NCBI GenBank assembly: GCA_002010065.2
Contig: MTMD02000014.1
Location: forward strand, 32,001 to 96,000
DNA from: Candidatus Pyrohabitans jungbluthii
GTDB lineage: Archaea > Hydrothermarchaeota > Hydrothermarchaeia > Hydrothermarchaeales > BMS3B
Length of the DNA: 64,000 bases
Reading direction: 5' to 3'
Below the pieces are notes generated by a model. The model saw only the letters and a program-made list of their open reading frames with translations. It was not told the DNA's origin and did no database searches. Made by a program: the position numbers and the translations under genes. Every line of letters starts with the position of its first letter. Position 1 is the stretch's first letter. Shown here piece after piece: positions 23,751 through 49,784 of this stretch.

Positions 23751-24308
23751 TCAATCCACCTGAATAACCCTTATATACACCCTAGCCACTGGCTTCTGCG
23801 GGTCGTTGGTGTAGAGGTTTACATACCTCACGACCTCACCTCTGAGATCGGGGTGAACCTTGGGATCGTAGTAAACCTTGAGGTAGGCTTTCTCTCCGGG
23901 ATGGATTCTCTGACTCCACCACTTTGGATTTGTGCCGTGCTCCCGCATATTGAATTTTGGACCTTCCTTTCCATTGTATATGATAGAGGCGGAGGTGCAC
24001 CCACAGGAGGTGTCCATATCGTCGATTACCAAATCGCCATCACCTCGATTCTCAATAACAAAGGTGGTGGTTACCACACCGCCCCTGACGCTCACCGTGC
24101 CAAAGTCGTATGCCTCAGGGGTAATCACCATTTTCGGCGTTCCCTCGATTATCTCTTCGGATTTTGAGAATTTTAAAGAATAGATTCCTATCGCCAGAAG
24201 CAAGAGGGCTGCAGCTATGATATATATCCCTCTGTTATTTTTTCTTTTTGCATTTTTTGCCTTCACTTTTTCTTTATTTTTTCGATATTTTTTCTTTTTC
24301 TTAGCCAT
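23751..24308 (-). CDS. DUF1573 Ig-like domain membrane protein
   Basis: Lys-rich N-terminus, TM helix, YDFG, TSCGCT, TNDP; start moved to 24308. Confidence 0.85.
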   Translation of the reverse strand: MAKKKKKYRKNKEKVKAKNAKRKNNRGIYIIAAALLLLAIGIYSLKFSKSEEIIEGTPKMVITPEAYDFGTVSVRGGVVTTTFVIENRGDGDLVIDDMDTSCGCTSASIIYNGKEGPKFNMREHGTNPKWWSQRIHPGEKAYLKVYYDPKVHPDLRGEVVRYVNLYTNDPQKPVARVYIRVIQVD

Positions 24309-24319
24309 ATCTTCACCTC

Positions 24320-25021
24320 CTAAAGCAGGGCGGGGAAGTAAGGCAGAAGCTTTGCCTGTATATATCTGTCTACGCCAAAGAGGATGCCAATGCCTGTGAG
24401 TATTATCACCCACCCGGCGAACTTTCTCATCCTGAGTGAGTTCCTCCTTACCCACTCAAGTCTTGCTCCGTAGCGCTTGCTCCCATACGCCACGGCGAGC
24501 ATGGGTATGCCGAGGCCTATGGAGTACACAAAGAGCATGAAGGAGCCCCTAAGTATGTCTCCACCCATGGCGACGTAGGATAGCACCGCTCCGAGCACCG
24601 GGCCGACGCAGGGTATCCAGACTATGCCCAGGGAGAGCCCCAGGAGGAACGCTCCGCCGAGAGAGTCTTCGCCGGTTTTTAAAGGTAAAAACTTTGAAAG
24701 CCTCCCGACGAGGGAAGAAGAGTGCTTTACATAAGCCTGGTTTAGTTCATCGTCCACCATTATGGCACCAAAGCCTATCATAAAGGCAATCGCAAGGTAG
24801 CGCATCACCTCGCCAGCGGCGCTCGCGGCGATGCCAAGAGCGGAGAACACTCCGCCCATAAGTGTGAAGGTGATGGACATGCCCAGGACTATAGCCAGCG
24901 GCCTGAGCTTGCTTCCAACGCTGCCCGCAAGGAGTGGTGGAAGTATTGGTATTATGCAGGGCGTCACCACTGTTAGTACGCCAGCGAGAAATACCAGAAC
25001 TATTGAAGGCTCGGCTACCAT
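24320..25021 (-). CDS. ccdA: Cytochrome c biogenesis protein CcdA
   Basis: TPCIIPILP and WIPCVGPVL motifs; about 6 TM helices. Confidence 0.92.
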   Translation of the reverse strand: MVAEPSIVLVFLAGVLTVVTPCIIPILPPLLAGSVGSKLRPLAIVLGMSITFTLMGGVFSALGIAASAAGEVMRYLAIAFMIGFGAIMVDDELNQAYVKHSSSLVGRLSKFLPLKTGEDSLGGAFLLGLSLGIVWIPCVGPVLGAVLSYVAMGGDILRGSFMLFVYSIGLGIPMLAVAYGSKRYGARLEWVRRNSLRMRKFAGWVIILTGIGILFGVDRYIQAKLLPYFPALL

Positions 25022-27886: not shown

Positions 27887-28055
27887 GGTTTCCCCCTTAA
27901 GAAGGGTAAGTGATGGCGTTGGGAAGGATTGTTGGAAGCATCTTATTCGTATTTTCAAGAATTTTTATGGTATCCTCTGTCGTCCATAGTTTAGTAGATG
28001 ATAATGTTATTTTAATATTACACAACAAAAACAGTGGCATAATATTTATATATCG

Positions 28056-29150
28056 ATGATCTGTATTATTTTTATGCACAAGATAAAAATGGTGTATTTA
28101 TCTGGCTTTGTCTCTCTAATTGTGCTATATTCTTTATTTTTCACAACGTATACGTGTGCTTTAAGCGTTGAAAATCCGCTTCCGATGGAATACATGGACA
28201 GAATTTCTATAATCTCAGCCGAGACTCATAGTCCTACCGACTCAGGAGACGAAGCCCATCTGGAAGATATCAGAGAGCTTCTTTCAGCTATGGAGTCTAT
28301 GCTGGTCTCTTTAATGGCAATATATCTGGTTGGCACATTCATATTTTTAATACTCAGAATGTCAGGAAAATTAGAATTTTTAAAATTTCATAGTTATGTC
28401 TACATAAGTGCATTTCTCATAGCAGTCTTTGGTTTTGGTTATTTGGCTTATCTTATATGGGGAATTTTTTATGCTCTGGCTACTGTTGTGGTGCTTTTAT
28501 TTTTAGGTTATTTAGGTTATAGGAGTGTTTTCTCTCCTGACATCTCCATTGAGAAGTCTGAAAAAGAGCCTATATCGGTGTGGAAAGATGTTATTTATGT
28601 GGGGAAGAGGAGCTATGCTGGAGGGATATTCTTTGCTATATGGATGGTTTTAAGCCTATATGTTGCTTTTACAGCTTTTGGAGAAGATAACTGGGTTTCT
28701 ATTACAGGTCTGTCTTTCTCATTTATTTCCTATTGCGGTTTTGTAAGCTCCTTTTTTAGTAATCTAAAGTTATACAGGGAGGGAATATATCAGAGAGATA
28801 TTCTCCTCAGACCTGAGTTTGTGACATGGAACTGTGTTGCTGATGTAAAAAAAGTCGAGCATTTTAAAGGTGGAGTAACCATTTCTCTGGAGATGAATAA
28901 ATTCTGTCGAAAAGTTTATGGAGTGAAGGGTATCAGTATATCCCCTTGGGAAGTCGATGATATGGGAAGGGTGTACAACATTATAAAAGAAATTCTCAGA
29001 TACAGGAAGTCGGCCTCGAGTTTTGAAGAATGGGCGGAGGAGGAGAAGAGATTACTTCAGGATGCATTAAGCAAAAGACATATTAGTCAGGAACAATATA
29101 ATAAAAGGATGGAAAAGCTTATGGAATGGGTATCCATGATATGTGGTTGA
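28056..29150 (+). CDS. Multi-pass membrane hypothetical protein (AT-rich)
   Basis: Five to six hydrophobic segments and a soluble C-terminus; start uncertain. Confidence 0.7.
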   Translation: MICIIFMHKIKMVYLSGFVSLIVLYSLFFTTYTCALSVENPLPMEYMDRISIISAETHSPTDSGDEAHLEDIRELLSAMESMLVSLMAIYLVGTFIFLILRMSGKLEFLKFHSYVYISAFLIAVFGFGYLAYLIWGIFYALATVVVLLFLGYLGYRSVFSPDISIEKSEKEPISVWKDVIYVGKRSYAGGIFFAIWMVLSLYVAFTAFGEDNWVSITGLSFSFISYCGFVSSFFSNLKLYREGIYQRDILLRPEFVTWNCVADVKKVEHFKGGVTISLEMNKFCRKVYGVKGISISPWEVDDMGRVYNIIKEILRYRKSASSFEEWAEEEKRLLQDALSKRHISQEQYNKRMEKLMEWVSMICG

Positions 29151-29212
29151 AATTCAAGGCTTAATTCAGATCAAGTTTTATTTTATTGATACTCAAGCGA
29201 TTAGAAGTAAGA

Positions 29213-29503
29213 CTATTGCATCTCTTTCCCGGTTTTCCAAAGTTTGTAATTCCCTTGGAGATATTGTTTGAGTTCTACGAAGAATAAAATTGTGCAAATT
29301 ATTCCAATAATGATAATAATACCATGAGGTGCTTGCGGCCATCCATAACCCGGGGTAAAAAATACATGTTTCATCAGCCCAAAGATTGTTTCTTTGGGCG
29401 CTGTTTTAATAATATAGTAGGACCAAAGATCGAATACTAGTGCTGCAATAAACATTTGTAATACCTGATTTCTCTTCTTCCTCTTTGCCTCTTTAATGTC
29501 CAT
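29213..29503 (-). CDS. Small membrane hypothetical protein (AT-rich)
   Basis: 96 aa with two hydrophobic segments. Confidence 0.6.
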   Translation of the reverse strand: MDIKEAKRKKRNQVLQMFIAALVFDLWSYYIIKTAPKETIFGLMKHVFFTPGYGWPQAPHGIIIIIGIICTILFFVELKQYLQGNYKLWKTGKEMQ

Positions 29504-29655
29504 GTTGTATTTTATTTAATTGACAAATTATAAAACTTGCTTCATTGATGGTTTCTTTATCTGCTCGAAAGGATTGAGCCATCTTAATTTTAAGCTTAGT
29601 TAAATTTTAGCAGGTTTAAATTTAAGCATGTGATTAATCTACAAAGAAAGAGGTA

Positions 29656-29730
29656 TGGGCCCGCTGGGCTTCGAACCCAGGACCTTTCGCTTATCAGGCG
29701 AACGCGCTAACCAGGCTGCGCCACGGGCCC
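29656..29730 (-). tRNA. tRNA-Ile(GAT)
   Basis: Minus strand GGGCCCGTGGCGCAGCCTGGTTAGCGCGTTCGC-CTGATAA-GCGAAAGGTCCTGGGTTCGAAGCCCAGCGGGCCCA folds as a cloverleaf; anticodon GAT; no intron; no encoded CCA. Confidence 0.96.
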
Positions 29731-29854
29731 TCGTGATTCGCCTGTGAGTTCACCTCTTAAAATTTTAATGAAAGTGTACCCAAGGTTTATATTCCTCATT
29801 CACCAATATTACCTTCGTTAAGCTTTCCCCTCTTTTCAGGAAGGTGAATACAAG

Positions 29855-31750
29855 TTGGACCTGATGCAGTTCCGCACCACCGAGGAGATTGAGGTTCCCA
29901 AGAACCTCATCGACCAGGTGATTGGTCAGGAGAGGGCGGTTGAGATTATAAAGAAGGCTGCCCTCCAGAAGAGGCATGTTTTACTGATAGGCGACCCTGG
30001 CACAGGGAAGAGCATGCTGGGCCAGGCTATGGCAGAGCTTCTCCCCACGGAGGAGCTTGAAGATATTCTGGTCTACCCCAACCCTGAGGACAAGAACAAC
30101 CCTAAAATAGAGGCGGTAAAGGCAGGCGAGGGCGAGGCGATAATTCAGCGCTTCAAGGAGCAGAAGCGCCGTGTAGAGGCGCCCATAAACACCATGTTCA
30201 AGGTGCTCTTCATAAGCGTAATGTTTCTGGTGCTGTACTACATGCTGGTGCTCCAGCAGCCTTATGTGCTGTTTCTCGGGATAATCGCCTTCGTCTTCCT
30301 GCTGATGGGCAGGCAGTACATTAAGGTTAAAGACGATGTGCTCGTTCCGAAGCTGCTGGTTAACAACAAGGGCAGGACGAAGGCACCTTTTGTGGACGCC
30401 ACAGGCTCGCACGCTGGAGCGTTGCTTGGCGATGTGCGCCACGACCCCTTCCAGAGCGGCGGTTTGGAGACGCCTCCCCACGAGCTGGTTGAGGCGGGGG
30501 CAATCCACAAGGCGCACAAGGGCGTGCTCTTTATAGATGAGATTTCCACTCTCGGTATAGAGAGCCAGCAGGCTCTGCTCACCGCTATGCAGGAGAAGAG
30601 GTTCCCGATTACCGGGCAGAGTGAGCGTAGCTCAGGTGCAATGGTGCGCACAGAGCCAGTGCCCTGTGATTTTATTCTCATTGCGGCGGGCAACCTCGAC
30701 GTGGTCAACAAGATGCATCCCGCCCTGCGCTCCCGTATTAGAGGCTACGGCTATGAGATTTACATGAAGGATGTGATGGACGACACCCGAGAGAATCGCG
30801 ACAAGCTGGTGCAGTTCGTAGCGCAGGAAGTTGTGAAGGACGGCAAGATACCCCACTTCACCCGCGAAGCTGTGATTGAGATAATTGAAGAAGCCAGGAG
30901 GCGCGCTGGCAGAAGGGGTAAGCTTACGCTGAAGCTTCGCGGGCTCGGTGGCTTGGTGCGCGCTGCTGGAGATGTTGCAATAAGCGAGGGTGCGCCCTAC
31001 GTAGAGGCGAGGCACGTAAAGAAGGCAAAGAAGATCGCCCGTACCTTGGAGCAGCAGATTGCCGATAGGTACATCAGTCAGAAAAAGGATTATGAGGTTT
31101 ACAAGGTTGAGGGCGCAGAGGTGGGCAAGGTTAACGGTTTAGCTGTAATCGGCAGCGACAGCGGCGTAATTTTGCCCATTGTAGCCGAGGTGACGCCTGC
31201 ACAGAGCCGCGAGGAGGGCAAAATAATAGCCACGGGCAAGCTGCGCACAATAGCGAGGGAGGCGATTCAGAACGTTAGCGCGATTATCAAGAAGCACACG
31301 GGTAGAGACATCTCGAATTACGACGTTCATATTCAGTTTCTGCAAACATACGAGGGCGTCGAGGGGGACAGCGCCAGCATAAGCGTCGCCACGGCTGTGT
31401 TCTCCGCCCTCGAGAATATACCAGTTGATCAAAGCGTTGCCATGACGGGCTCGCTCAGCGTGCGCGGCGACGTCCTGCCGGTGGGCGGTGTAAACGCGAA
31501 GATAGAGGCTGCGCTCAACGCGGGCATAAAGAAGGTGATAATACCTCACGGAAACCTCAAAGATGTGATGCTTGACCCGGAGAAGCGCAGGAAGATAGAG
31601 ATTGTGCCTGTGAAGACGCTTTCGGAGGTGCTGGAAGAGGCGCTGTGCTGGAGCGAGGATCGCGAGGGCTTGCTCGACCGCGTGAAGAGCATGATTTCCC
31701 TGCCGAGGGTGGACAGGGCTCTGCCGAGTGTTGACAAGCAGGGAAGCTGA
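29855..31750 (+). CDS. lonB: Archaeal membrane-bound ATP-dependent protease LonB
   Basis: GDPGTGKS, TM insertion in the AAA+ domain, LFIDEI, catalytic GDSAS and GGVNAKIEAA. Confidence 0.96.
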   Translation: MDLMQFRTTEEIEVPKNLIDQVIGQERAVEIIKKAALQKRHVLLIGDPGTGKSMLGQAMAELLPTEELEDILVYPNPEDKNNPKIEAVKAGEGEAIIQRFKEQKRRVEAPINTMFKVLFISVMFLVLYYMLVLQQPYVLFLGIIAFVFLLMGRQYIKVKDDVLVPKLLVNNKGRTKAPFVDATGSHAGALLGDVRHDPFQSGGLETPPHELVEAGAIHKAHKGVLFIDEISTLGIESQQALLTAMQEKRFPITGQSERSSGAMVRTEPVPCDFILIAAGNLDVVNKMHPALRSRIRGYGYEIYMKDVMDDTRENRDKLVQFVAQEVVKDGKIPHFTREAVIEIIEEARRRAGRRGKLTLKLRGLGGLVRAAGDVAISEGAPYVEARHVKKAKKIARTLEQQIADRYISQKKDYEVYKVEGAEVGKVNGLAVIGSDSGVILPIVAEVTPAQSREEGKIIATGKLRTIAREAIQNVSAIIKKHTGRDISNYDVHIQFLQTYEGVEGDSASISVATAVFSALENIPVDQSVAMTGSLSVRGDVLPVGGVNAKIEAALNAGIKKVIIPHGNLKDVMLDPEKRRKIEIVPVKTLSEVLEEALCWSEDREGLLDRVKSMISLPRVDRALPSVDKQGS

Positions 31751-38351: not shown

Positions 38352-38936
38352 ATGCCGCCACGGGCGATAAAAACAGTTAGAGACTTAATATACTGGCAAT
38401 ATGCAAAAATAATCGCCGACTCTGCAGGTTTTGGTAAAAGACACTGGCGCTTTGTGATGAGCAGATTCAAAAAGTTTCAGCAAGGAGAAATATTCTGGAA
38501 CGAAATCAGAGAATACGTAAAGGAGAGAGAAAAAAGAGACGAGTGTATATTTTGCGGCAATAAAGCTTCCCTTACTTTAGAGCACATGTTTCCAAGAGCT
38601 TTAGGTGGTCCAAATGATGAGAAGAATATTGTATGGGTGTGTCCCTCCTGCAACTCTTCGAAGAGGGACAGAAGGTTATACGAATATTATGCTCTGAAGG
38701 GAGGGTTGAAGACCGCAAAGTATGACGTTCCCAGAATCGCCGAGGGAAAATACCTGAAGTTCCTCTATGAAATGTTTAGAGATAAGGGTTTGCTTGATGC
38801 TGATATAGAGTACTTAAAAGAAAAAGTCTGTCCGCATTGTGATTTAAGAGAGACATGTGTCAAAGAGAAGAGTGAGGGGAAACTTTCTCCACTCTGTCTG
38901 GATGGGCTGGCTACGTTGTGTTTAATGGGGGAATAA
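38352..38936 (+). CDS. HNH endonuclease
   Basis: CIFCG...EHMFPRALGG...NIVWVCPSCNSSK. Confidence 0.88.
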   Translation: MPPRAIKTVRDLIYWQYAKIIADSAGFGKRHWRFVMSRFKKFQQGEIFWNEIREYVKEREKRDECIFCGNKASLTLEHMFPRALGGPNDEKNIVWVCPSCNSSKRDRRLYEYYALKGGLKTAKYDVPRIAEGKYLKFLYEMFRDKGLLDADIEYLKEKVCPHCDLRETCVKEKSEGKLSPLCLDGLATLCLMGE

Positions 38937-38993: not shown

Positions 38994-39188
38994 TCAACAA
39001 ACTCCTTCTTTGAATTCTATATCAAAAAGGTCTTTATTAAACCGCCTCTTAAAAATATCTTCTGCAAGCTTTTTAAACTCCGGAAACTCCCTCGCAAACT
39101 GGACAAACAGCTCTCTTGCATAATAAACACACCCACCATCAGCAGAAACCATTATTTTAAGAATCTTTTTTGCTTCTTCTTTATTCAT
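38994..39188 (-). CDS. Small hypothetical protein
   Basis: 64 aa MNKEEAKKILKIMVSADGGC..., with a GGAGG RBS; overlaps the M48 gene stop. Confidence 0.55.
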   Translation of the reverse strand: MNKEEAKKILKIMVSADGGCVYYARELFVQFAREFPEFKKLAEDIFKRRFNKDLFDIEFKEGVC

Positions 39189-39945
39189 GTATACCTCCTC
39201 TCCATTCCCTCCATGATACCTCTGAAAATCTATGAGCTTGGAAACATGCCTTATTACCATTAAAAATCGGCAGCTTATAGCCAGTGTGGATATAAAACCA
39301 ATACTCAGTAAGCTTCTTTTCATTGGCTTTAAAGTCTTCAAACTCCTTTTCAACGATGCTCCAGAATCTCTTGCTGTGCCTCTTCTCTTTTAGATGTACT
39401 ACTTCATGGAAAACCACATACCTCATCAACTCCTCTGGAAGCACAGCCAGCTTCAAATTAAAGCTAAGATTGCCGTTTGAGGAGCAGCTTGCCCACTTGC
39501 TCCTCTGATTTTTAATGAAAATTTTCCCAGGCTTCAGACATAACTTCTCAGAATATTCCTCCACAGCTTCCTCAATTTTCTCTCTGAGGATTTTCCTGAT
39601 CTGCTTTTTAATCTTCCTGTGGTGTGCTTCACTTTCAGGATTTATTAATACCTTACCCCTCTCAAAATCGATGCTTGGTTCTTCAGATGGGACTATCTTT
39701 AACTTCCTGCCGAAAAGGATAGCCTCATCTTCATCGAGGCTTTCATTTATCTTATTTACAACCTCCTGAATTTCCCTGTACTTCCGAATTATCCAGCTTT
39801 TCTTCCTCTCTAAAATATCCTCCTCGCTCTTCATATTCTCGGGAAGCACCACAAGAAGCGAGCCCGTTTTGAACTCCAGCCTGGGGTACTTCACTCGCCT
39901 CTTCTCTACTCTGTATTCAACTTCAACCCCGTTGGCTTTAAACAC
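39181..39945 (-). CDS. M48/YgjP (DUF45) metallopeptidase-like protein
   Basis: SKWASCS, LSFNLKL, YVVFHEVVH and HSKRFW; typical position after hsdR; GTG start inferred. Confidence 0.9.
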   Translation of the reverse strand: MFKANGVEVEYRVEKRRVKYPRLEFKTGSLLVVLPENMKSEEDILERKKSWIIRKYREIQEVVNKINESLDEDEAILFGRKLKIVPSEEPSIDFERGKVLINPESEAHHRKIKKQIRKILREKIEEAVEEYSEKLCLKPGKIFIKNQRSKWASCSSNGNLSFNLKLAVLPEELMRYVVFHEVVHLKEKRHSKRFWSIVEKEFEDFKANEKKLTEYWFYIHTGYKLPIFNGNKACFQAHRFSEVSWREWRGGIHE

Positions 39946-39946
39946 A

Positions 39947-42900
39947 TCAGTCCAGCTCTTCAAAGCCCTGCATGATCTTCTCATGTATCTCCTTCCTATC
40001 CTCAAAGCTCAGCTTATCCTTGAACCTCCTCAAAAACCTCATCAGCTCCCTGCCCACCTCCTTCTTAGTGGTGCTCTTCCTGCTCCACCCCTGGAATAGC
40101 TTCCCCTTTTCCACGAGCTGCTGAACAAAACCTTTTACATCTTGAATTAGCTCCTCAGCTTTGCTCAGCCTCTCCTCCAGCACCACAAGCATTAGATACT
40201 CGTGCTCGCTGAGCTTGAGCCTCTTCTTCCTCTCCTCAAGCTCAATGAGATTTTTAACCTCCTTCTCAAGCTGTGAGTAAGCCTCCTCTATCGCTAACTT
40301 CCTCTGCTTCCACTTTTTTATTATCCTCTCCACCCTCTCGGCGATGGGCTCATACACCGGGTTGCTCGCCTTGTCAACGAGCACGTACCTGTTTAGGGTG
40401 AAAATCATGTCGTATATCTTCGCCTCAGCATCGCCATAGGCTTTGCTCAGCTTCTCCAAGTAATCCTCATCCAGCCTGAGAATTGGGAACTCCTCTTTTA
40501 TCCTGTCAACCTCAATGCTTCTGTGTATCGCCTCAAGCGTCTTGGGGTAGTACTCCTCTACTTTTTCTCTCACCACCAGAGCTTTAGGCTCCTGCTCGGG
40601 GTACTCTGCCTCCTCACTGGGGTCTCTCCTCTTTGCGTATCTGCTGTAGGCGATGTAAACCTGAGTTAGCCACCCGAAGCGCGAGGCATGCTGTGCCTTA
40701 ACCGGATGAGAGCCCAGAAACTCAAAGAGGTTTCTGAGCTTTCTGTAGTTTTTGAGAAAGAGCTTTGCCTTTTTTTCATCCTTAGCTAATAATTTTACAG
40801 CAGACATCAGCGTAGCCCTGTCGTCTTTGCCCTTATCAATCCCCTGGAATATCTCCTCTGTGTCCCCAAGAAGTGTGACGAACTCTTGAGCCTTTTCATC
40901 GATGCTTATGAGCACCCCTTCAACGTCTTGCTTCTCGTAGTCTTCTAAGGCTTTCTCGAATTCTGCGAGAATGCCCACGTAGTCAATAATCAGCCCCGCT
41001 TCTTTAACGCTCCTGTACGGGCGGTTGGTTCTCGCCACCGATTGGAGAAGCCTGTGCCCTTTCAGTGGCTTGTCCAGATACATAACCTGTAGCACAGGTG
41101 CATCGAAACCCGTGAGTAGCATGTCGGTAACCACGAGTATCTTGGGCAGCTTGCCATTTTTGAACTTCTCTACAATCTCCTCCTTTATCTCCCCCACATC
41201 CTTGCCCGGGAACCTCTCTCTAAGCTCCTTAAGGTAGTCAGAGATAATCTTTTCCTTCTCAACCCTGTTGTAGGTCATCACCACCTCAACATAGCCTTTC
41301 GGTAAAAGCGTGTCCAACTCCCTCTTGTAGTGCACGCATGAAGCTCTATTCACCGCCACAACCATGGCTTTAAACTTCCCGTCCACCTCCCGCAAAAAGT
41401 GCTCTGCAATATCGCTGGCGACCCTCTTTATCCTTCTCGGATTGGAGAGCACCACCTTAATTTTGTCCAGCTTTCTGCTTATCTTCTTCTCCACCTCTTC
41501 CTTCAGCTCTTCAGGAATTTCCTCCTCTTCATACTCAAGAAAAGCCCTGAGGAGGTTTTTTCTCAGCACTATGTCGCTCTCCATCCTCGTTTGAAAGACT
41601 ATGGGCAGGGTGAAGCCGTCCTTCAGCGAGTCGAGAACAAAGTACTTGTGCAGGTAGAGCTCTCCTTTATCTGGATAGGCAAACTCCAAAAAGGTGTCTC
41701 TCCCCTTCTTTGATATGGGCGTACCCGTGAAAGCAAAGAAGAAGGCGTTTCTAAGTATGTTCTTCATCTGCGAGGCAAGGAGACCGTACTGAGTGCGGTG
41801 TCCTTCGTCTATGAACGCTATAACGTTCTTCCTTGTTGCTATCGTCTCTCCTAAGCCCTGCGCTTCCAGCTCTCTGGCAAGCTCCTCAAGCTCCTTAGGC
41901 TGGAACTTGTGGATAAGGGTGATGAATATCCCCCTCTTTCCTCGCCCGGAGTCGTGGCTCAGCACCTCTCTCAGCTTGGCTATGGAGTCTATCACCTCCG
42001 GCTTTATCTCCACATCGAGTGCTGAAAACTCCTGCCTGAGCTGCTCCTGAAGCTCCACTCTATCGACAACGAAAAAGATGGTGGGGTTCTCTAAGCTTCT
42101 GTGCCTGTACAGCTTGAGCGCCGCGAATATCATTGTCAGCGTCTTTCCGCTGCCCTGCCAGTGCCACACTAGCCCGTGGTTTCTTTGGTCTTCTCCCCTC
42201 AGGTTGCGGAGCACCCTCTCGTAAATCATGTTCGCAGCTTCGTACTGCATGTATCTGGGCAGCACCTTCGTTATCCTGCCCCTCTCTTCCCTCACAAAGG
42301 TGAAGTTCGCCAGTATGTCCAGCAGAGTGCGCCTCCGCAGCATCTCCAGCGTCGCCTCAAGCTCGTCCAGCTCACCAGCGCGCCAGCGGTATATGCTTAC
42401 CTCGTCTGCCTCCCTCACATTGGGGAAGTACCTCGCCTCCTGCTCCGCGGCGATGCTGAACTGCACATATTTAAAAAGCTCGGGCACCGTGCTCTCATAC
42501 TCCTTGACCTGCCTGTAGGCATCCCGCCATGAGACGCTTGCATCCGCAGGATTCTTGCACTCTATCAGCACCAGAGGCATGCCGTTAACGTATAGCACAA
42601 GGTCGGCTCTTATTCTCTCAGCAGCACCCTCAAAGCTCACCTGCCTGCTCACCACAAACTCATTCTTTGCAATATCCTCTAAGTCAACCAAACGAGCAAG
42701 CATCAACTCCCTGCTCTTCTCCAGCTTTATCCCCACACCCCGCCTGAAAAACCTCAGAAACTGCCTCGTGCCATGTATAGACGCGGGCAGGCTCTTTAGC
42801 TCCACAAGTATCCTGTTTATGTCCCCCTCTGTAAGCTTCTCCCCGTTTATCCTCCTCAGAGCACTGGCTAAGCTCCTCTCCAGCAGGGGCTCAGCCAAGC

Positions 42901-43003
42901 TCTCCCTCTCTAACGCCTGCGCTGGCACAAAGCGCCAGCCCTCTTCCACGAGTTTTTCAATGATGTAGTCCTCGACGGCGCTCTTCTCGGTGAAGGTGGG
43001 CAT
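39947..43003 (-). CDS. hsdR: Type I restriction enzyme R subunit
   Basis: ADLVLYVNGMPLVLIECK nuclease motif, QGSGKT, DEGHR, FTGTP, MLLTGFDAP and QSVARTNR. Confidence 0.97.
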   Translation of the reverse strand: MPTFTEKSAVEDYIIEKLVEEGWRFVPAQALERESLAEPLLERSLASALRRINGEKLTEGDINRILVELKSLPASIHGTRQFLRFFRRGVGIKLEKSRELMLARLVDLEDIAKNEFVVSRQVSFEGAAERIRADLVLYVNGMPLVLIECKNPADASVSWRDAYRQVKEYESTVPELFKYVQFSIAAEQEARYFPNVREADEVSIYRWRAGELDELEATLEMLRRRTLLDILANFTFVREERGRITKVLPRYMQYEAANMIYERVLRNLRGEDQRNHGLVWHWQGSGKTLTMIFAALKLYRHRSLENPTIFFVVDRVELQEQLRQEFSALDVEIKPEVIDSIAKLREVLSHDSGRGKRGIFITLIHKFQPKELEELARELEAQGLGETIATRKNVIAFIDEGHRTQYGLLASQMKNILRNAFFFAFTGTPISKKGRDTFLEFAYPDKGELYLHKYFVLDSLKDGFTLPIVFQTRMESDIVLRKNLLRAFLEYEEEEIPEELKEEVEKKISRKLDKIKVVLSNPRRIKRVASDIAEHFLREVDGKFKAMVVAVNRASCVHYKRELDTLLPKGYVEVVMTYNRVEKEKIISDYLKELRERFPGKDVGEIKEEIVEKFKNGKLPKILVVTDMLLTGFDAPVLQVMYLDKPLKGHRLLQSVARTNRPYRSVKEAGLIIDYVGILAEFEKALEDYEKQDVEGVLISIDEKAQEFVTLLGDTEEIFQGIDKGKDDRATLMSAVKLLAKDEKKAKLFLKNYRKLRNLFEFLGSHPVKAQHASRFGWLTQVYIAYSRYAKRRDPSEEAEYPEQEPKALVVREKVEEYYPKTLEAIHRSIEVDRIKEEFPILRLDEDYLEKLSKAYGDAEAKIYDMIFTLNRYVLVDKASNPVYEPIAERVERIIKKWKQRKLAIEEAYSQLEKEVKNLIELEERKKRLKLSEHEYLMLVVLEERLSKAEELIQDVKGFVQQLVEKGKLFQGWSRKSTTKKEVGRELMRFLRRFKDKLSFEDRKEIHEKIMQGFEELD

Positions 43004-43976
43004 TTTTAGTCACTCTTTTTAGATGTTTTTCTAATTCTACATCAAAATTTTTGATTATATTACCTAAAATTATAAATATTTTGTCTAAAGAATCTACTAT
43101 GCCAAGTCCTGGCTTATAATCTGTTGGCTTAAGTTTTCCATCTGGATACCTCGTATATGAAAAATGTGGATAAGTAATTACAGATAATATAAAAATACAA
43201 CCAGAAATTCCAAAGAGTTTAATTATTTTATCTATATTTTCATGAGTATAAGTTAAATTTCTGTCTATAGAATTCAATTCATGTTCGGGTAAATTTACCT
43301 TTTTTAGATTTTTAAGTAAATCTATTTTGAATTTTTTTATAGTTTTGCGGAGCTGTCTTATATCCACATTTTTATCAATTTTAATGAATTTTTTACATAA
43401 CTCTAAATAAACATAAATTTCATTTTTATCCATTTTTGCTAATCGTTCTGGTTTACGTTCTATGTATTTTTTTAGTTTATCTATATCAGATTTATTAATT
43501 TTCTTTTTCAAATAATTGCATTTATTCAAACAATCAATTACCTTTTCCATATTATTAAGAAATATAAAAAATGTTCTCGGCGTAATATGGCTGATAGTTT
43601 TATTTTCATCATTCTTCCTAAATAATTTGGTTAATAAACCACCTTTTATTTCTTTTTTCCTGCCGTATAAGTCATTCTTTTTGATGATGCCTAAATATAG
43701 GCCATATCCTTTGGAAATTTTCTCTACAGCTTGCTGTAAATGATATACTGACAATGACCAAATTTTTTCTTTACTTAATAATTTTGCTGCTTTATAATCC
43801 TCTTTTGCACAATATAAAAGAGAAGAAATATATTCTGCATTTCTAATATGTGTTTGGTTATGAATATATTTTTCAAGGTATTGATATAGCTCTAACACGT
43901 CTTTTAAACTAATATTTAGGCCGGCAGTTTTATTTGCAGTATTAATCGCAACTTGAATAGCCTTAATATTTGTCAA
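42957..43976 (-). CDS. Expanded HEPN-domain protein (AT-rich)
   Basis: AKEDYKAAKLL...YHLQQAVEKISKG, SH and YTRYPD match the COG2250-type HEPN signature, split by a long helical insert. Confidence 0.75.
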   Translation of the reverse strand: MTNIKAIQVAINTANKTAGLNISLKDVLELYQYLEKYIHNQTHIRNAEYISSLLYCAKEDYKAAKLLSKEKIWSLSVYHLQQAVEKISKGYGLYLGIIKKNDLYGRKKEIKGGLLTKLFRKNDENKTISHITPRTFFIFLNNMEKVIDCLNKCNYLKKKINKSDIDKLKKYIERKPERLAKMDKNEIYVYLELCKKFIKIDKNVDIRQLRKTIKKFKIDLLKNLKKVNLPEHELNSIDRNLTYTHENIDKIIKLFGISGCIFILSVITYPHFSYTRYPDGKLKPTDYKPGLGIVDSLDKIFIILGNIIKNFDVELEKHLKRVTKNAHLHREERRRGLHH

Positions 43977-45736
43977 ATTTTCACCCTCCTTCTCCCTGTG
44001 AGCAAATCATTCATCAACCCCTTCTTAATCCTCTCTAGCTTCTCCTTTCGCTTCTTCTCCAGCTCCAGTTTTTTGTCCATTGTGCTCAGGATTTCGGCGA
44101 TTTTTTGTTGTTCGGGAAGGGGTGGAAGTGGGATTTTAAAATTCTTTATAATTCTAACATTTAATTGTGGCTGAGCAGTACCATACGCAATCCTCTTAAT
44201 TTGAGTTTTAAGAAAAGGTGTTCTAAAAAGTAAACATAGGAATTTGTTATCAATATTTTTATTTTTGTTTCTAAGGATGACCATTCCTGAGTTTATTCGT
44301 ATGTGTTCATAGGGCACATTATCATCATAATATCCAACATTTCCAATTGTTCCACGAGTGGTTAAAACAATATCGTATCTTTTCAATTTTCCCTTGCCCA
44401 TTTTAGAATCTTTTTCTTTAGAAATGAATTGAGTTTCTGTAAATTTAAATCCACTTTCGGTAACATTTTTTGCATTTAAAAAGAGACAAAATCCTTTATT
44501 CGAAAAATCTGATTGTTTAGGATAATTCACTCCCCTATCTCCATCTATTACTTCTATATTGGCATGTACTAGCCTAACCACCTCCCATTCCTCTGGAATC
44601 CTACCAATCTCGGAATCCTTAAATTTTCTATATTCTCCCTTCAAAAATTGCTCAAATGTTATGGCATGTCCACCAAATTCAGTGGTTACTAATCTCAGAT
44701 TTTTGTCATTGCTTACAAGAATTAGATTATTTTTAATGGAAGTTTCGGCTATTAGTGCATCTCTTATTTGATTTTCTTTTGTTTTTTTTCCAGTTTTTTC
44801 ATCTAATTCTTGAAGCTTCAATAATATTCTATCATATAAATCTCCTTCACCAAATTTTGAATTATCCCATCTAGAAATGTCGAAAACTGTTGTTTCTGTC
44901 AGAATTACGTTTTGTTCTAATTTTTTAAAAATTTCTAAAAGATTGCTTCTTCTTTCTAATTTCTCAGTTTTTTTAATGTTTTCAATTTCATCTTTTTGAA
45001 TGTGTGTAATGTAATAGTTATATTTGGTAGGGAGTTGATCCACACTTATTTTACCGTCTAATATGGCATCAAATATATTAGTATCAAACATAAAACCATT
45101 AATAATTCCTTTTGTCAAAAGCTCCTGCATCAAGCCCCTCTTCAGCCTCTCAGTCTTGGCTATGACGGCGCTGACTTTCTGGATGGCATTGTCCACCGTG
45201 CTTAAGATTTCGGCGATTTTGTGTTGTTCTGGGAGTGGTGGAAGGGGGATTAGGAGATTTTCTAGGTTTTTTCTACTAATTCTTGACCTTGTTGCCCCTG
45301 CTGATAATCTCATTGCTTCTGCTAATATCTTGGGACTATTTAAAATATATACTAGGAATCTTTTATCTACTCTTTTTTTATTTACTTTAAGTATTGTAAT
45401 ATCTACAGCAACAATATAAGGATAGGGAAGTTCTGGAGCAATGCATGCTCTCCCTATTGGTTCAGGCATTCTTGAAATTAAAATATCCTCTTTTGGTCGC
45501 ACAAAAGTACAACTTAGTTTTTTTGCTGAATCATATGAAATAAATCTATTTGATTTATCTAAAAATCTACCTATTCCAATATCCCCAACTTGTAAGAGTC
45601 TAACACCCTCAGAAGTATAATATTTTTTAAGTATCCAATCACCATCTTTTAACTTTCCAATTTCCTTATCCCCAAGCCTCATAACCTCCCAATCCTCTGG
45701 GATTTCTCCGATTGGGGTTTGCTTAAATTTTGTCAT
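43973..45736 (-). CDS. hsdS: Type I RM specificity subunit HsdS with an internal PIN domain
   Basis: Two TRD-CR halves (IGEIPEDW / IGRIPEEW; PLPPLPEQxKIAEILST twice); about 157-aa insert with FDTN, E, RDALIA and VSND. Confidence 0.92.
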   Translation of the reverse strand: MTKFKQTPIGEIPEDWEVMRLGDKEIGKLKDGDWILKKYYTSEGVRLLQVGDIGIGRFLDKSNRFISYDSAKKLSCTFVRPKEDILISRMPEPIGRACIAPELPYPYIVAVDITILKVNKKRVDKRFLVYILNSPKILAEAMRLSAGATRSRISRKNLENLLIPLPPLPEQHKIAEILSTVDNAIQKVSAVIAKTERLKRGLMQELLTKGIINGFMFDTNIFDAILDGKISVDQLPTKYNYYITHIQKDEIENIKKTEKLERRSNLLEIFKKLEQNVILTETTVFDISRWDNSKFGEGDLYDRILLKLQELDEKTGKKTKENQIRDALIAETSIKNNLILVSNDKNLRLVTTEFGGHAITFEQFLKGEYRKFKDSEIGRIPEEWEVVRLVHANIEVIDGDRGVNYPKQSDFSNKGFCLFLNAKNVTESGFKFTETQFISKEKDSKMGKGKLKRYDIVLTTRGTIGNVGYYDDNVPYEHIRINSGMVILRNKNKNIDNKFLCLLFRTPFLKTQIKRIAYGTAQPQLNVRIIKNFKIPLPPLPEQQKIAEILSTMDKKLELEKKRKEKLERIKKGLMNDLLTGRRRVKI

Positions 45737-46686
45737 CTTAAAAGCCTCCGGCTCAATTTTTCACATATCTGATAAAGTTGTGGTATCTTCTCCATGACTG
45801 AGGGTACAATCACACCAAAACAAAAGCCAACATAATGTGCCAATATGTTAATCAAGTTGGTACCTCTTCGTATTTCAGAAGGTATTAGATTTGGTAGGGA
45901 AAATAGATAAACTATAGCTATTACAAAAACTCCCACTCTATAAGATAAAATAGGCGGGTGATTAACAAGCTCTTTTAGTTTTTTGAGATAGTGAATAGAT
46001 ATTTTTTGCATGGTTTTAAGATTGATTAAAAGAAACACAATTGAAATAACAGCCAATAGTACTTTTATATGTATTGGTGTGCCTAAATTAATAATTCCCA
46101 CTATTGAGAGATTTACAAGGATAAGAAAGCTAAAAAATTCTGCTTTTACTGAGAGAGTTGATACCTTCTTTAAATAATTATAGACTGCAAAAATAAAATA
46201 ACCTATCAAACCAGAAACAATTGCAGAAAAACCACTTATTTTGGGGATGTTTGGCGTAAAAATAATGTTACTTAAAGAAGATACAAAAGGTAAAATAATA
46301 AAAATTAAAAATGATGATACATAAAAGATTTTCTTATTTGTCTCAACATTGAATATCAAAAAGATTATAAGAAAATATGTGATTATGTTGCTTAAAAAAT
46401 GTTTATACTCTAAATGGGTGTAATGGGAGAGGAACATAGTTAATATCGTTGGGTTTGAGACTATTAAGGTAAAAGATTCCTTCATATCTGGAGGTAATGA
46501 ATATATTAATACGAGGATTCCAGGCAAGATCAAGAAGAAAAGCAAAAAGTCATACAGATTCCAGATAACCAGGACTGGATTAAGTTTTATCACTTTTTCA
46601 ATACATTTCCTTTTGACCAAATAATCTCCAAAAACGCCAAGTAATTGCCAAATAATTGCCAAGTTATTTGAGGACATAGTGGACAC
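45733..46686 (-). CDS. Rhomboid-family intramembrane serine protease (AT-rich)
   Basis: HLEYKHFLSN (HxxxxHxxxN), GFSA (catalytic Ser), AHYVG (catalytic His); multiple TM helices. Confidence 0.78.
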   Translation of the reverse strand: MSTMSSNNLAIIWQLLGVFGDYLVKRKCIEKVIKLNPVLVIWNLYDFLLFFLILPGILVLIYSLPPDMKESFTLIVSNPTILTMFLSHYTHLEYKHFLSNIITYFLIIFLIFNVETNKKIFYVSSFLIFIILPFVSSLSNIIFTPNIPKISGFSAIVSGLIGYFIFAVYNYLKKVSTLSVKAEFFSFLILVNLSIVGIINLGTPIHIKVLLAVISIVFLLINLKTMQKISIHYLKKLKELVNHPPILSYRVGVFVIAIVYLFSLPNLIPSEIRRGTNLINILAHYVGFCFGVIVPSVMEKIPQLYQICEKLSRRLLR

Positions 46687-48010
46687 CTCGTCCCTTCCCT
46701 CTTACCTGAAGAATGCCCTTTGCGACCAGCTCATTCAAATCAAGCCTGGCGCCTTCATCTGAGAGTCCAGAGAGTTCTCTATATTCCCTATTCGTAATCC
46801 TCCCCTTCTCCTTTACGTACATCACCGCCTTGATCTGCCTTTCATTCAATCCCAGGCTGCGGAGGTATTCTTCTGTGTAGATGTCCTTTCTGAAGATCAC
46901 CCAGAAGCCCCGGCGCTCCTCAAACTCGGGCTCAGGAAGCGATGCGCTGAGGCAGGCTTTTCTCATCTTGTCTATGCCGGAGCCCCACTGTTCGATTAGC
47001 CCCATGTCGTAGAAGACTCCTGCGATGCCCTTGTTTCTGAGTACTGAGGAGTGGGGTTTGTAGAGGTCTTCGATGGTGATGCCGTAGGGTAAGCCTCCAG
47101 GGCTCCACACTACAAGCCTGTCGTCGTATATCCTGATTTCAACGCTGGCAGGGATGGTGTAGTCCCTGTGGCAGACGGCGTTGATAACCGCCTCCCTCAA
47201 AGCTTCCAGAGGATATTCCCAGACCTCCTCCCTCTGGGGTTCGCCTGTCATCACAAAGCTTACGCTGATGTGCTTGCGAATAAAGTCCATTGCTTCGTCC
47301 ACCTGCTCAATTACTGTGCCGCCTATCATGCGGTCGTCGATTATCGTGGTTTCTCCTCTGAACCTGCCGCAGTGCACCGTCGCTTGAGAGAGAATACGCT
47401 GAGGTTCTCTGCCGAAGAGAAGCAAAGCCGCCCAGGTGGGCTGATTGTCTTTTATCAGGTCTAACTTTTCAAGAACCTGAAGGTGGTCTTCGTCCTCGGA
47501 GATATTCCTCCTTCCTGCGCTGTTGGCTCTCTTTATATATCTTTTTACCTTCTCGGGGTCTATATCCTCCAAGGTTGCGTCCCTCGCTGGGAGCTTGTCC
47601 CAGCTCATCCCAGCGGAGGCGAAATGCACCTGGGCAATCTCCTGGGGCTGCATAGCTCTGTTGCTGTTTCCCACCCTTCTGTAACATCTTCCTCGCACAG
47701 ATACCGGCTTGATTGGAAACTCTTTAATCGTTATAACAACAACCTTTTTCCCATCTGCCTCCTCAAGCTCAACCTCAGGGATAACTCTCGGCTCTGTGCT
47801 CTGAGAAATCTGATTTGCCCACTCTCGCAGAGTTTCTTTTCCGATATCCACGCCCTTAATCTCGCCGCTGTCGGAGACGCCTATGATTATTGCCCCACCC
47901 CTTGTGTTGGCAAAGGCTCCGGCGGTGACGATTACCTCCCTGTTGAAGTATTCCTTAAATTCGACGGTATCTGACTCTCCTTTACTTATTAGTTCATTTA
48001 AATCCACCAT
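46664..48010 (-). CDS. Schlafen/AlbA_2 + HATPase_c_4 + wHTH protein
   Basis: GESDTVEFKE, AFANTRGG, REAVINAVCHRDY, SPGGLP, IEQWGSGI; C-terminal HTH. Confidence 0.9.
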   Translation of the reverse strand: MVDLNELISKGESDTVEFKEYFNREVIVTAGAFANTRGGAIIIGVSDSGEIKGVDIGKETLREWANQISQSTEPRVIPEVELEEADGKKVVVITIKEFPIKPVSVRGRCYRRVGNSNRAMQPQEIAQVHFASAGMSWDKLPARDATLEDIDPEKVKRYIKRANSAGRRNISEDEDHLQVLEKLDLIKDNQPTWAALLLFGREPQRILSQATVHCGRFRGETTIIDDRMIGGTVIEQVDEAMDFIRKHISVSFVMTGEPQREEVWEYPLEALREAVINAVCHRDYTIPASVEIRIYDDRLVVWSPGGLPYGITIEDLYKPHSSVLRNKGIAGVFYDMGLIEQWGSGIDKMRKACLSASLPEPEFEERRGFWVIFRKDIYTEEYLRSLGLNERQIKAVMYVKEKGRITNREYRELSGLSDEGARLDLNELVAKGILQVRGKGRGVHYVLK

Positions 48011-49784
48011 CACCATTAAACCCCAGCTCCGCCAGATAATCCTCAATCTTCTCCTCTACGCTGGCGATCTCCCTCTCTATAGCCCTGAGCTCTTCCCACT
48101 CCTTGGCTACGTCTATCTCCTCAAGCTCCTCCTGCGGGAAGACGTAGAGGGTGACGTTGAGGTTGAAATCGTTCACTTTAATCTCATCAAGGCTCACAAC
48201 CCTTGAAAATCCGTCCCCGTCCTTGAATTCTCTATATGCCTGGGCTATCTTTGAGATGTGCTCCTCGCTGAGGCGGTTGAGCTTCCTCACCTCGGGGTGC
48301 TGCTCGTACTCCTGAGAGGCGTTGATGAATAGCACCTTACCCCTTCGCTCTTCAGGCTTGTTCTTGTTGAAGATAAGCACAGCGCCTGGTGCACCAGTGT
48401 TGTAAAACAGCTTCTCAGGGAGCAGAATCACACACTCTACTAAGTCTTCCTCCAGCGCCCTCTGCCTTATGGCTCGCTCTTTGCCTCCGCGGAATAGGCA
48501 ACCGTTGTCAATAACCACGCCTACCCTACCCTTTTCGTCATCTGCGCTCGCCAGCATGTGCTGAATCCATGCCCAGTCTGCTGACTGCTTCGGGGTAAAG
48601 CCGTACTTGTACCTCTCCCTCCAGAAGTCCGCCTTTTTTAAAACGCTCTCGTCGTAACCGTCCTGATTCCATGGGGGATTTGCTATAACCACGTGGAATT
48701 TCTTAAACATGCTGTCCTGGAGAAACTTTGGATAGATCAGGGTATCACCCTGCCTAAGCTCTGCATCCCTAATATCGTGAATGTAGAGGTTCATCTTGCA
48801 CAGCGCCAAGGTAGTGGCGTTGGCTTCCTGACCGTAGAGGAAGAGCCTCTTTGCCTCCTCTGGACCGTGCTTCTCCTTAACGTGGTTGTAGGCGAGGATG
48901 AGCATGCCTCCAGAGCCACAGGCTGGATCATAAACTTCCTCTCCCGGCTTGGGATCGAGAATCTCAACCAGTAGCTTTATAACCTCCCGTGGGGTATATA
49001 CCTCGCCCTCCTTTGCCTTCTGCGGTGCAAAATAGCGCAGAACCCATTCGTAGGCGTCGCCTAAAATATCCGGCGAAACATGGTGGAGTTTTCTGGCGCT
49101 GAATAGCTCAACAAGCTGCCTGAGAATCTCAAAGTTCTCAGTGCTGCTGGTGAACTGAAGAAAGTCTGCCCTGTCAACGACGTCTTTAAGCTCCGGGTTG
49201 CGCTCAGCGATAACCTTAAGCGCCTGGGAAAGCTTCACAGGTAGCTGGTTCACATCCCTTCTGATATTCTCCCACAGGTACTCCTGGGGTATATCAAAAT
49301 CGTGGTAATACTTGCTCTTCGCCTCCTCCCTCGCCTCTTCTTCGGTTAAACCATCGGCAAGAGCTTCCCTGTAAGCCCGCTCGTACTCCAGCTCCCACTT
49401 GTCGCTTATCCTCTTGAGGAAGAGGAGAATGAGGATAAACTTGTAGTCCACCCTGGTTCTTATTAAATCTGCCGCCTTCTTTAGAAGACTCTCCAGCTCC
49501 TCACGGGTTAGCTTCTCTCCGGGGGAAAGTCCCTCTCTGATTATGTCCCTCTTGCTCTTCAAGATATACACCCGCCTTCTGGCGTCGGCTTCGTCTATTC
49601 TCGCTTCAAGCCAGCCCGCTTTCCTAAGCTCTGAGAGGATTACGTTAATGTTATTCTTAGGGTCTTTAAACCTCTCCCTCAATACCCGGTAGGCATCTTC
49701 TCTTGTAAAAGCTTTTTCTTGGAACACTTCAAAAAGGGCTTCGTGCCTTACTTCGAGCCACCTGGGGAGTGTAATTTCACCCAT
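47994..49784 (-). CDS. hsdM: Type I RM N6-adenine methyltransferase with N-terminal winged helix
   Basis: GEVYTPREV, DPACGSGG, ANPPW and LFYNTG motifs. Confidence 0.96.
   Translation of the reverse strand: MGEITLPRWLEVRHEALFEVFQEKAFTREDAYRVLRERFKDPKNNINVILSELRKAGWLEARIDEADARRRVYILKSKRDIIREGLSPGEKLTREELESLLKKAADLIRTRVDYKFILILLFLKRISDKWELEYERAYREALADGLTEEEAREEAKSKYYHDFDIPQEYLWENIRRDVNQLPVKLSQALKVIAERNPELKDVVDRADFLQFTSSTENFEILRQLVELFSARKLHHVSPDILGDAYEWVLRYFAPQKAKEGEVYTPREVIKLLVEILDPKPGEEVYDPACGSGGMLILAYNHVKEKHGPEEAKRLFLYGQEANATTLALCKMNLYIHDIRDAELRQGDTLIYPKFLQDSMFKKFHVVIANPPWNQDGYDESVLKKADFWRERYKYGFTPKQSADWAWIQHMLASADDEKGRVGVVIDNGCLFRGGKERAIRQRALEEDLVECVILLPEKLFYNTGAPGAVLIFNKNKPEERRGKVLFINASQEYEQHPEVRKLNRLSEEHISKIAQAYREFKDGDGFSRVVSLDEIKVNDFNLNVTLYVFPQEELEEIDVAKEWEELRAIEREIASVEEKIEDYLAELGFNGDGGFK

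Follow-up and report, generated by a model that had tools for sequence, protein, structure and literature searches.

A divergent rhomboid-like gene within a type I restriction-modification operon of Candidatus Pyrohabitans jungbluthii

We analyzed a stretch of 64,000 nucleotides from Candidatus Pyrohabitans jungbluthii (NCBI GenBank assembly GCA_002010065.2, contig MTMD02000014.1, positions 32,001 to 96,000 of the forward strand), hereafter the window, in which a gene for a rhomboid-like intramembrane serine protease, at 45733..46686 on the minus strand, lies within a type I restriction-modification (RM) operon. Judged by its sequence and its predicted model, the encoded protein belongs genuinely, if remotely, to the rhomboid superfamily and has an apparently intact catalytic set, and its family is a large, almost purely archaeal, divergent branch of that superfamily with approximately 1000 clusters. 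We favor the reading, with a probability of roughly 0.6, that the gene encodes an active intramembrane serine protease of this branch and that an exchangeable hsdS cassette carries it here as cargo, its product not being a subunit of the RM system.

Rhomboid features of the protein and its family

The open reading frame (ORF) encodes 317 residues when read from GTG 46686 and probably 314 from ATG 46677; the latter is the more likely start because a database cluster identical to the window protein (P0001) is 314 residues long. From this ATG, the gene overlaps the stop codon of the upstream gene (TAA 46666-46664) by 14 nt. Its own stop codon (TGA 45735-45733) overlaps the hsdS start codon (ATG 45736-45734), the two together reading ATGA. 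The gene has a GC content of 0.303 and a GC content at third codon positions (GC3) of 0.289, compared with a window mean GC of 0.50. Its product contains eight hydrophobic or helical segments, and the distribution of lysine and arginine over the loops is compatible with an N-in/C-in arrangement in which Ser154 and His284 lie near the outer side of the membrane. An earlier reading of the DNA made from its letters alone (the sequence-only reading) had described an AT-rich ORF with multiple transmembrane (TM) segments, the motifs HxxxxHxxxN, GFSA and AHxxG, and the ATGA overlap with hsdS, and each of these was confirmed. The TM2 motif H91-x4-H96-x3-N100 (HLEYKHFLSN, residues 91-100) is encoded at 46387..46416, the putative catalytic serine motif G152-F-S154-A155 (GFSA, residues 152-155) at 46222..46233, and the putative catalytic histidine motif A283-H284-xx-G287-xxx-G291 (AHYVGFCFG, residues 283-291), which lies on the last TM helix, at 45814..45840, all on the minus strand.

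These motifs are in register with those of E. coli GlpG. When the family was aligned by hhalign with the GlpG sequence taken from NC_000913.3, H91, H96, N100, G152 and S154 fell exactly on H145, H150, N154, G199 and S201. The TM2 motif was paired with the GlpG stretch HFSLMHILFN (residues 145-154), making its residues the candidate equivalents of the oxyanion-hole His/Asn residues H145, H150 and N154, and GFSA was placed on G199-L-S201-G. The histidine motif has the same pattern as AHIAGLAVG in GlpG (residues 253-261); this is a match of pattern only and lies outside the hhalign alignment.

Relatives were numerous. A word-indexed search returned 10, and an exhaustive profile search returned 1009 representative clusters (defined at 50% identity) at E<=1e-3, 632 at E<=1e-10 and 140 at E<=1e-30; among the best 150 clusters, most were matched across nearly the whole profile and were proteins of 250-300 aa. 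From 158 proteins besides P0001, 112 relatives of 250-320 aa were chosen and aligned with the window protein, giving an alignment of 113 sequences. In this alignment, G152 and S154 are invariant (113/113), H284 is kept in 111/113, G287 in 105/113 and G291 in 106/113, H96 and N100 are kept in 110/113 each, and H91 is kept in 109/113. Position 155 is glycine (GxSG) in 65 of the 113 sequences and alanine (GxSA) in 38.

The best Pfam match of the window protein is Rhomboid (PF01694), at E=0.05 and 14.2 bits with a gathering cut-off of 22.6, and its sole match in NCBIfam is rhombosortase TIGR03902 (E=2.3e-7, 30.9 bits, cut-off 84), which covers residues 87-178, from the TM2 motif to the serine helix. 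Meanwhile, 48/113 relatives match PF01694 at E<=1e-3, the best at 4.3e-9, and the relatives from three genome loci (L003, L004 and L012) score 28-30 bits, above the cut-off. Membership of the rhomboid superfamily therefore rests on transitive homology, since the window protein is below threshold but some of its relatives pass PF01694. The Pfam Rhomboid search that the sequence-only reading had proposed gave a sub-threshold score for the window protein taken alone and clearer matches for part of its family. The claim of a rhomboid holds for a superfamily member with the Ser/His/Asn set intact, and has to be narrowed in that the protein is only remotely related to canonical rhomboids.

Other sequence comparisons place the family in the same way. 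The nearest clusters in the ESM Atlas are 98% archaeal and automatically named "Peptidase S54 rhomboid domain-containing protein", and the feature and structure neighbors in that atlas carry PF01694. In the tree, a long branch (support 93/93) parts the family from E. coli GlpG and a canonical rhomboid of a Haloferax plasmid. Sixteen longer relatives were scanned for extra domains; Rhomboid was found in 4/16 and no other Pfam domain in any of the 16, and their extensions, which look membrane-embedded in the alignment, give no functional clue. A tblastn search of phage and virus records returned no match to the rhomboid-like protein.

We then considered the predicted fold. The AlphaFold2 model built from the 113-sequence alignment has a predicted local distance difference test (pLDDT) score of 93.0 and a predicted template modeling score of 0.90. 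In a Foldseek search against the PDB, the first 30 matches listed were all GlpG, with probabilities of up to 1.00 and TM scores, normalized by target, of 0.34-0.58, and the top matches in BFVD were viral proteins named "rhomboid family". A first model, built from 11 sequences (pLDDT 83.9), had returned a mixture of G-protein-coupled receptors and GlpG in the fold search and was superseded by the 113-sequence model.

The stretch between the serine and histidine motifs (45841..46221, minus strand) sets the family apart. It spans 130 residues from Ser154 to His284, compared with 53 in E. coli GlpG, and the spacing is a family trait: among the 111 relatives keeping both residues, the median is 130 and the spacing is at least 110 in 109/111. 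The model places four helices between the catalytic helices, at residues 182-199, 205-221, 223-240 (lysine-rich and amphipathic) and 245-261, and the stretch fits about two additional TM helices plus a cytoplasmic helix. The loop charges indicate that an extra pair of TM helices preserves the N-in/C-in topology. Because the spacing, the modeled helices and the loop charges agree, the family is predicted to have eight TM helices, the internal insertion presumably adjoining what in GlpG is the gate through which substrates enter. Rhomboid topologies are classed as 6, 6+1 and 1+6, and an internal insertion at this place is not known to us from any rhomboid topology described.

The mechanism that we propose follows the GlpG paradigm, and protease activity itself would be assigned by the same analogy. 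The catalytic dyad would consist of Ser154, located at the outward-facing end of its TM helix, and His284, located in the final TM helix, and His96 and Asn100 on TM2 would stabilize the oxyanion. About two extra TM helices and the cytoplasmic amphipathic helix would sit between the serine and histidine helices, near the place of the substrate gate in GlpG, and the enzyme would cut a membrane-spanning segment of some substrate.

The type I RM operon and its low-GC cassette

Seven tightly packed or overlapping genes on the minus strand of the window run from hsdM to a gene for a YgjP-like metallopeptidase domain. The sequence-only reading had placed the rhomboid-like gene inside a type I RM operon and coupled it to hsdS, and both statements were substantiated: hsdM, hsdS and hsdR were identified on the same strand by Pfam, NCBIfam and PADLOC, and the coupling is seen in the overlapping stop and start codons. 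The type I methyltransferase gene hsdM lies at 47994..49784. It is followed by a gene at 46664..48046, between hsdM and the rhomboid-like gene and of host-like GC, which encodes a protein with SLFN_AlbA_2 and HATPase_c_4 domains and a weak DeoR-type helix-turn-helix (HTH) match. Downstream of the rhomboid-like gene, hsdS (43973..45736) encodes 587 aa (Pfam Methylase_S, E=3.3e-53; PADLOC Specificity_I) and carries a PIN-like domain of about 140 residues between its two target-recognition domains (TRDs), at residues ~216-355 (~44672-45091); the matches of this insert to Pfam PIN (E=3.6e-4) and PIN_4 (E=2.1e-3) are both below cut-off. A HEPN-domain protein of 339 aa is encoded between hsdS and hsdR, at 42957..43976 (Pfam PF05168, E=9e-6, 26.3 bits, cut-off 22), with no match in PADLOC or NCBIfam. 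The restriction subunit gene hsdR occupies 39947..43003 and is recognized by Pfam, NCBIfam and PADLOC (TIGR00348 at 704 bits), and the YgjP-like gene (39181..40005; PF01863, E=4.9e-41) closes the operon at its 3' end.

Three of these genes, HEPN, hsdS::PIN and the rhomboid-like gene, form a low-GC cassette at 42957..46690 on the minus strand, as delineated by a GC scan and by GC3. The GC3 values are 0.19 for the HEPN gene, the lowest, 0.27 for hsdS::PIN and 0.29 for the rhomboid-like gene, compared with flanking values of 0.68 (hsdR), 0.62 (AlbA_2 gene) and 0.63 (hsdM). In 200-nt bins, the GC content switches at ~43000 and ~46700, that is, in the bins holding the outer gene ends of the cassette. 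No repeats were found at the cassette borders; the sole long direct repeats, D1 and D2, lie inside hsdS approximately 1.1 kb apart and are consistent with a duplication underlying the two TRDs. A sigma-70 promoter and terminator scan was disregarded as not meaningful for an archaeon.

The simplest reading of this arrangement is that a resident RM operon had its specificity module exchanged for a foreign cassette of three genes, in which the rhomboid-like gene was already present; we infer acquisition in a single event and co-expression. In the proposed scheme, the foreign AT-rich cassette would occupy the position of the specificity subunit in a GC-rich type I RM operon, and because it sits there, the rhomboid-like gene would come to be co-oriented with hsdS and coupled to it by overlap.

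Several further features of the operon were recorded. HsdM has an N-terminal extension of ~90 residues ahead of HsdM_N, with a weak winged-helix-type match at residues 42-79 (MsvR model, E=7.6e-5). The SLFN_AlbA_2/HATPase_c_4 protein shows domain-level matches in PADLOC to Argonaute-associated models. The PIN-like insert of HsdS is common to 22 other HsdS clusters (550-594 aa, 45-64% identity), a small number of which bear an organism name, from Aenigmarchaeota, Thermoplasmatales and Omnitrophica; this suggests at the sequence level that an HsdS-nuclease fusion is recurrent. A hydrophobic stretch of the HEPN protein (residues 248-272) was considered as a TM substrate and rejected; it ends in YTRYPD, which we take to be a HEPN-core motif, and is probably a buried helix. 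Adjoining the 3' end of the operon, a gene on the plus strand (38352-38936; GC 0.42, intermediate) encodes an HNH protein of 194 aa that in part resembles the HNH region of IscB/Cas9d (NF040563, E=2.2e-13, with a score well under the cut-off).

Elsewhere, the window looks like ordinary archaeal chromosome and includes genes for FtsY, formate dehydrogenase, LonB, MtaA-type methyltransferases and FrhB/FpoF-like proteins. Tandem paralogous ORFs at 23331-24455 on the minus strand match the model of the OS_HP2 (seleno)protein family. Both encode a membrane anchor and the motif SCGCT, and a TGA with an ATG directly after it separates them. A single selenoprotein reading through this codon (TGA=U) was rejected in favor of two paralogues, each with its own start and anchor. 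A second low-GC stretch (28001-30000, GC 0.35-0.40), beside the archaeal LonB gene, contains ORFs at 28056-29150 (plus strand) and 29213-29503 (minus strand) with no NCBIfam match and may be another island.

Genomic context of relatives and alternative readings

We examined 21 other loci encoding relatives (numbered with the prefix L), of which 14 came from one genome scan and seven from haloarchaeal plasmids. In the genome loci, 127 ORFs were called within 7 kb of the match, with a minimum length of 70 aa and the longest being kept where ORFs overlapped, and were scanned with Pfam and PADLOC. The label "defence" for a neighbor is a manual judgement, and the following PADLOC cross-hits were discounted as generic: radical SAM/pVip, AAA/IetA, methyltransferases/mad2, PolB/HEase, HTH/Csa3 and IscB-like HNH/PtuB.

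A defence or toxin-antitoxin (TA) gene was present within two genes of the rhomboid-like gene in 5/14 genome loci, namely MNT-HepT in L001, an MmeI-type RM gene in L002, a UvrD/PD-(D/E)XK protein in L003 (ambiguous, with GajB-like cross-hits only), a PDC-M05A nucleotidyltransferase in L006 and Cas6-Cas10-Csm2 in L007. The remaining nine loci were without one: L004, where the gene stands at the end of a mevalonate-pathway operon; L005, L012, L013 and L014; L008-L010, which hold three close relatives downstream of alpha-2-macroglobulin; and L011, a partial locus near a serine recombinase. The seven haloarchaeal plasmids carry distant members (23-28% identity by tblastn) whose neighbors are mostly hypothetical proteins. 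On these plasmids, a DUF4209/PDC-S39 candidate adjoins the rhomboid-like gene in L018, where a "DNA methyltransferase" of unspecified type lies at the edge of the stretch; L020 has an HNH endonuclease neighbor, L022 has RelE/ParE two to three genes away, and L016, from Haloplanus, has an SLFN_AlbA_2 protein two genes away. No hsdR, hsdM or hsdS was found up to a distance of two to three genes from the rhomboid-like gene in any of the 14 genome loci or the seven plasmid loci.

No partner gene emerged from these comparisons. In an all-against-all BLAST of the neighbors, no family was common beyond closely related genomes. A conserved HEPN partner was rejected, as the HEPN protein of the window and the downstream protein of L005 (weak HEPN, E=0.038) matched by BLASTP at E=1.6; likewise, the HepT of L001 and a 147-aa ORF of L006 were rejected as orthologous partners (E=6.2). 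In three ANME-2/Methanosarcinales genomes, an alpha-2-macroglobulin-family gene lies directly upstream on the same strand (L008 30-2795, L009 61-561, L010 209-1420), a possible pairing of protease with protease inhibitor or substrate.

In the window, L001, L004, L005 and L008-L010, no other coding sequence of the locus has a GC3 as low as that of the rhomboid-like gene (for example, 0.27 compared with a mean of 0.54 in L005 and 0.32 compared with 0.62 in L008), and this holds even where it is a single gene between housekeeping genes. In L002 and L006 it shares a low-GC3 island with the MmeI-type RM gene and the PDC-M05A nucleotidyltransferase gene, respectively. The haloarchaeal plasmid members have host-like GC3. 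As the gene is so often the lowest in GC3 of its locus, these values suggest a horizontally moving, mobile accessory gene. The tree departs from taxonomy, with a Bathyarchaeota sequence nested among Micrarchaeota. The defence label is scattered over it, requiring 6 changes compared with a shuffled mean of 6.7, and the near-identical branches L003 and L004 stand in opposite contexts. By its GC3, the family looks like a recurrent singleton acquired horizontally.

Several results weigh against an active rhomboid protease carried as cargo. In addition to the sub-threshold scores of the window protein with PF01694 and TIGR03902, the hhalign comparison with GlpG is weak (E=0.0021, probability 13.6%) and its alignment ends ahead of the histidine helix. 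The family profile found no rhomboid among PDB sequences; it returned only two chains of ATP synthase subunit 8 (E ~0.07-0.1), which we took as chance matches. Across three Foldseek searches, every match had an E-value above 0.001, the best being 0.051 against the PDB and 0.0067 against BFVD. The fourth position of the serine motif is alanine in the window protein, where glycine is canonical. Finally, a functional module, as opposed to passive cargo, could equally well account for the close overlap with hsdS and for the composition that the gene shares with hsdS::PIN and HEPN.

The strongest alternative, though an unlikely one, is that the protein is a defence component, an antiviral sensor or effector in the RM operon that complements DNA restriction. 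Speculatively, it could act by cutting membrane proteins used in viral entry or egress, by removing a host receptor or by abortive infection at the membrane. The gene is embedded in a type I RM operon of the same orientation, with HEPN and PIN-like domains encoded alongside, and has the atypical GC and patchy, horizontally moving pattern that is typical of defence genes. The neighborhoods described above (five of the genome loci, the low-GC3 islands of L002 and L006, and the plasmids L018 and L022) point in the same direction. At the level of genes, 7/42 proximal ORFs and 1/71 distal ORFs carry the defence label (Fisher p=0.004), although genes of one system are not independent. Genes found inside type I RM operons have been identified as defence systems (TgvAB, PMC11411939; "guilt-by-embedding", bioRxiv 10.1101/2024.01.29.577857). 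However, the main text of the latter (bioRxiv 10.1101/2024.01.29.577857) never uses the word "rhomboid", and full-text literature searches returned no paper linking rhomboids with RM systems or antiviral defence. With PADLOC-DB v2.0.0, 0 families matched the window protein at E<=0.01, and the relatives in the scanned loci gave 0 matches at E<=1e-10 (genome loci) and E<=1e-5 (plasmid scan). Nine of the 14 genome loci are without nearby defence genes, and some of these, for instance L004, are clearly housekeeping. No gene recurs as a partner, and the defence context does not cluster on the tree. The comparison of homolog neighborhoods that the sequence-only reading had suggested gave an intermediate result, as 5/14 corresponds to P=0.009-0.13 for assumed baselines of 10-20% and is borderline (P=0.05-0.13) with a 15-20% baseline for a defence gene within four neighbors. 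Its proposal of a defence gene accordingly keeps the association in 5/14 loci, and is opposed by the nine loci without defence or TA genes, by the lack of nearby type I RM genes at all 21 other loci and by the absence of a PADLOC match.

A broader version seems somewhat less likely still. In this version, the whole subfamily of long rhomboids, distinguished by strikingly AT-rich genes and by the insertion of about two TM helices near the gate, would be a horizontally mobile conflict gene of variable or defence islands, joined in the window to an hsdS::PIN-HEPN cassette and acting at the membrane against viruses or rival mobile elements, possibly by cutting single-pass viral entry, egress or assembly proteins or by receptor shedding. 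If this were true, it would represent a layer of immunity by membrane proteolysis coupled to DNA restriction.

We judge it improbable, and a little more so, that the protein is a sorting or maturation protease similar to rhombosortase, which would free particular secreted or surface proteins of their membrane anchor. The best curated match of the window protein is indeed rhombosortase TIGR03902, and neighbors of surface or secreted type occur: L008-L010 have alpha-2-macroglobulin immediately upstream, L012 has a DUF11 protein, L021 a LolA-like protein and L017 a 747-aa protein with N-terminal and C-terminal anchors. However, the score of 30.9 bits is far under the family cut-off of 84, a neighbor of this type is neither conserved across the family nor present in the operon of the window, and the C-terminal anchors in L017 and L005 look unlike GlyGly-CTERM; they resemble what we take to be PGF/PEF-CTERM archaeosortase signals.

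It is very unlikely that the gene is an inactive passenger, whether a non-catalytic scaffold pseudoprotease, as in iRhom and Derlin, or a decaying hitchhiker. GxSA in place of GxSG, the long insertion between the catalytic helices and the foreign composition of the gene would suit such a passenger. However, the ORF is intact, the Ser, His and Asn residues and the small-residue packing motifs are conserved across the 113 relatives, the AlphaFold2 model is confident, and GxSA, found in 38/113 sequences, is hence a normal family variant. The weak sequence and fold statistics of the window protein taken alone would also allow an unrelated polytopic membrane protein (a transporter or anchor) with chance motifs, but this is the least probable reading of all, given transitive homology to proteins above the Pfam Rhomboid threshold, motifs in register with GlpG, GlpG alone at the top of the fold search and Atlas neighbors that carry PF01694.

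Significance and comparison with known systems

To our knowledge, the physiological substrates and roles of prokaryotic rhomboids are largely unknown. Our analysis defines a large archaeal rhomboid subfamily with an intact set of predicted catalytic residues and an unusual insertion between the catalytic helices. Its low GC3 and variable context, sometimes with RM, TA or CRISPR genes nearby, suggest that the subfamily moves horizontally often. If the placement in the RM operon reflects function, intramembrane proteolysis would join the archaeal antiviral repertoire; if it does not, the locus would be a clean example of "guilt by embedding" picking up passengers that travel with an exchangeable specificity cassette.

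In comparison with rhombosortase (TIGR03902), the family described here is archaeal and longer, the window protein scores 30.9 bits with a cut-off of 84, and no partner of the GlyGly-CTERM type was found among the neighbors in the window and the examined loci. The location between hsd genes on the same strand is shared with defence genes embedded in RM loci, such as the anticodon nuclease PrrC, TgvAB of Vibrio cholerae VPI-2 and the PADLOC "PDC" candidates. Those genes encode cytoplasmic nucleases or ATPases and appear repeatedly in RM contexts, whereas the gene in the window would encode a membrane protease, is found with type I RM only here (0/21 other loci) and has no PDC match. The haloarchaeal plasmid members have the same long architecture, with tblastn matches spanning residues ~59-296 including the insertion, and 2/7 are annotated as rhomboid (RefSeq "rhomboid family intramembrane serine protease"); they differ from the window protein in their 23-28% identity, host-like GC3 and different neighbors. 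The closest comparison remains with the rhomboids themselves (PF01694/MEROPS S54; structural prototype, GlpG of E. coli and H. influenzae), with which the protein shares HxxxxHxxxN, GxS(G/A) and (A/S)HxxGxxxG in the same order and an N-in/C-in topology. It differs from canonical rhomboids in falling below the Pfam cut-off and in its Ser-His spacing of 130 instead of 53 residues, and from rhomboids with six TM helices in a predicted total of eight, the extra helices and the lysine-rich cytoplasmic helix lying between the serine and the histidine.

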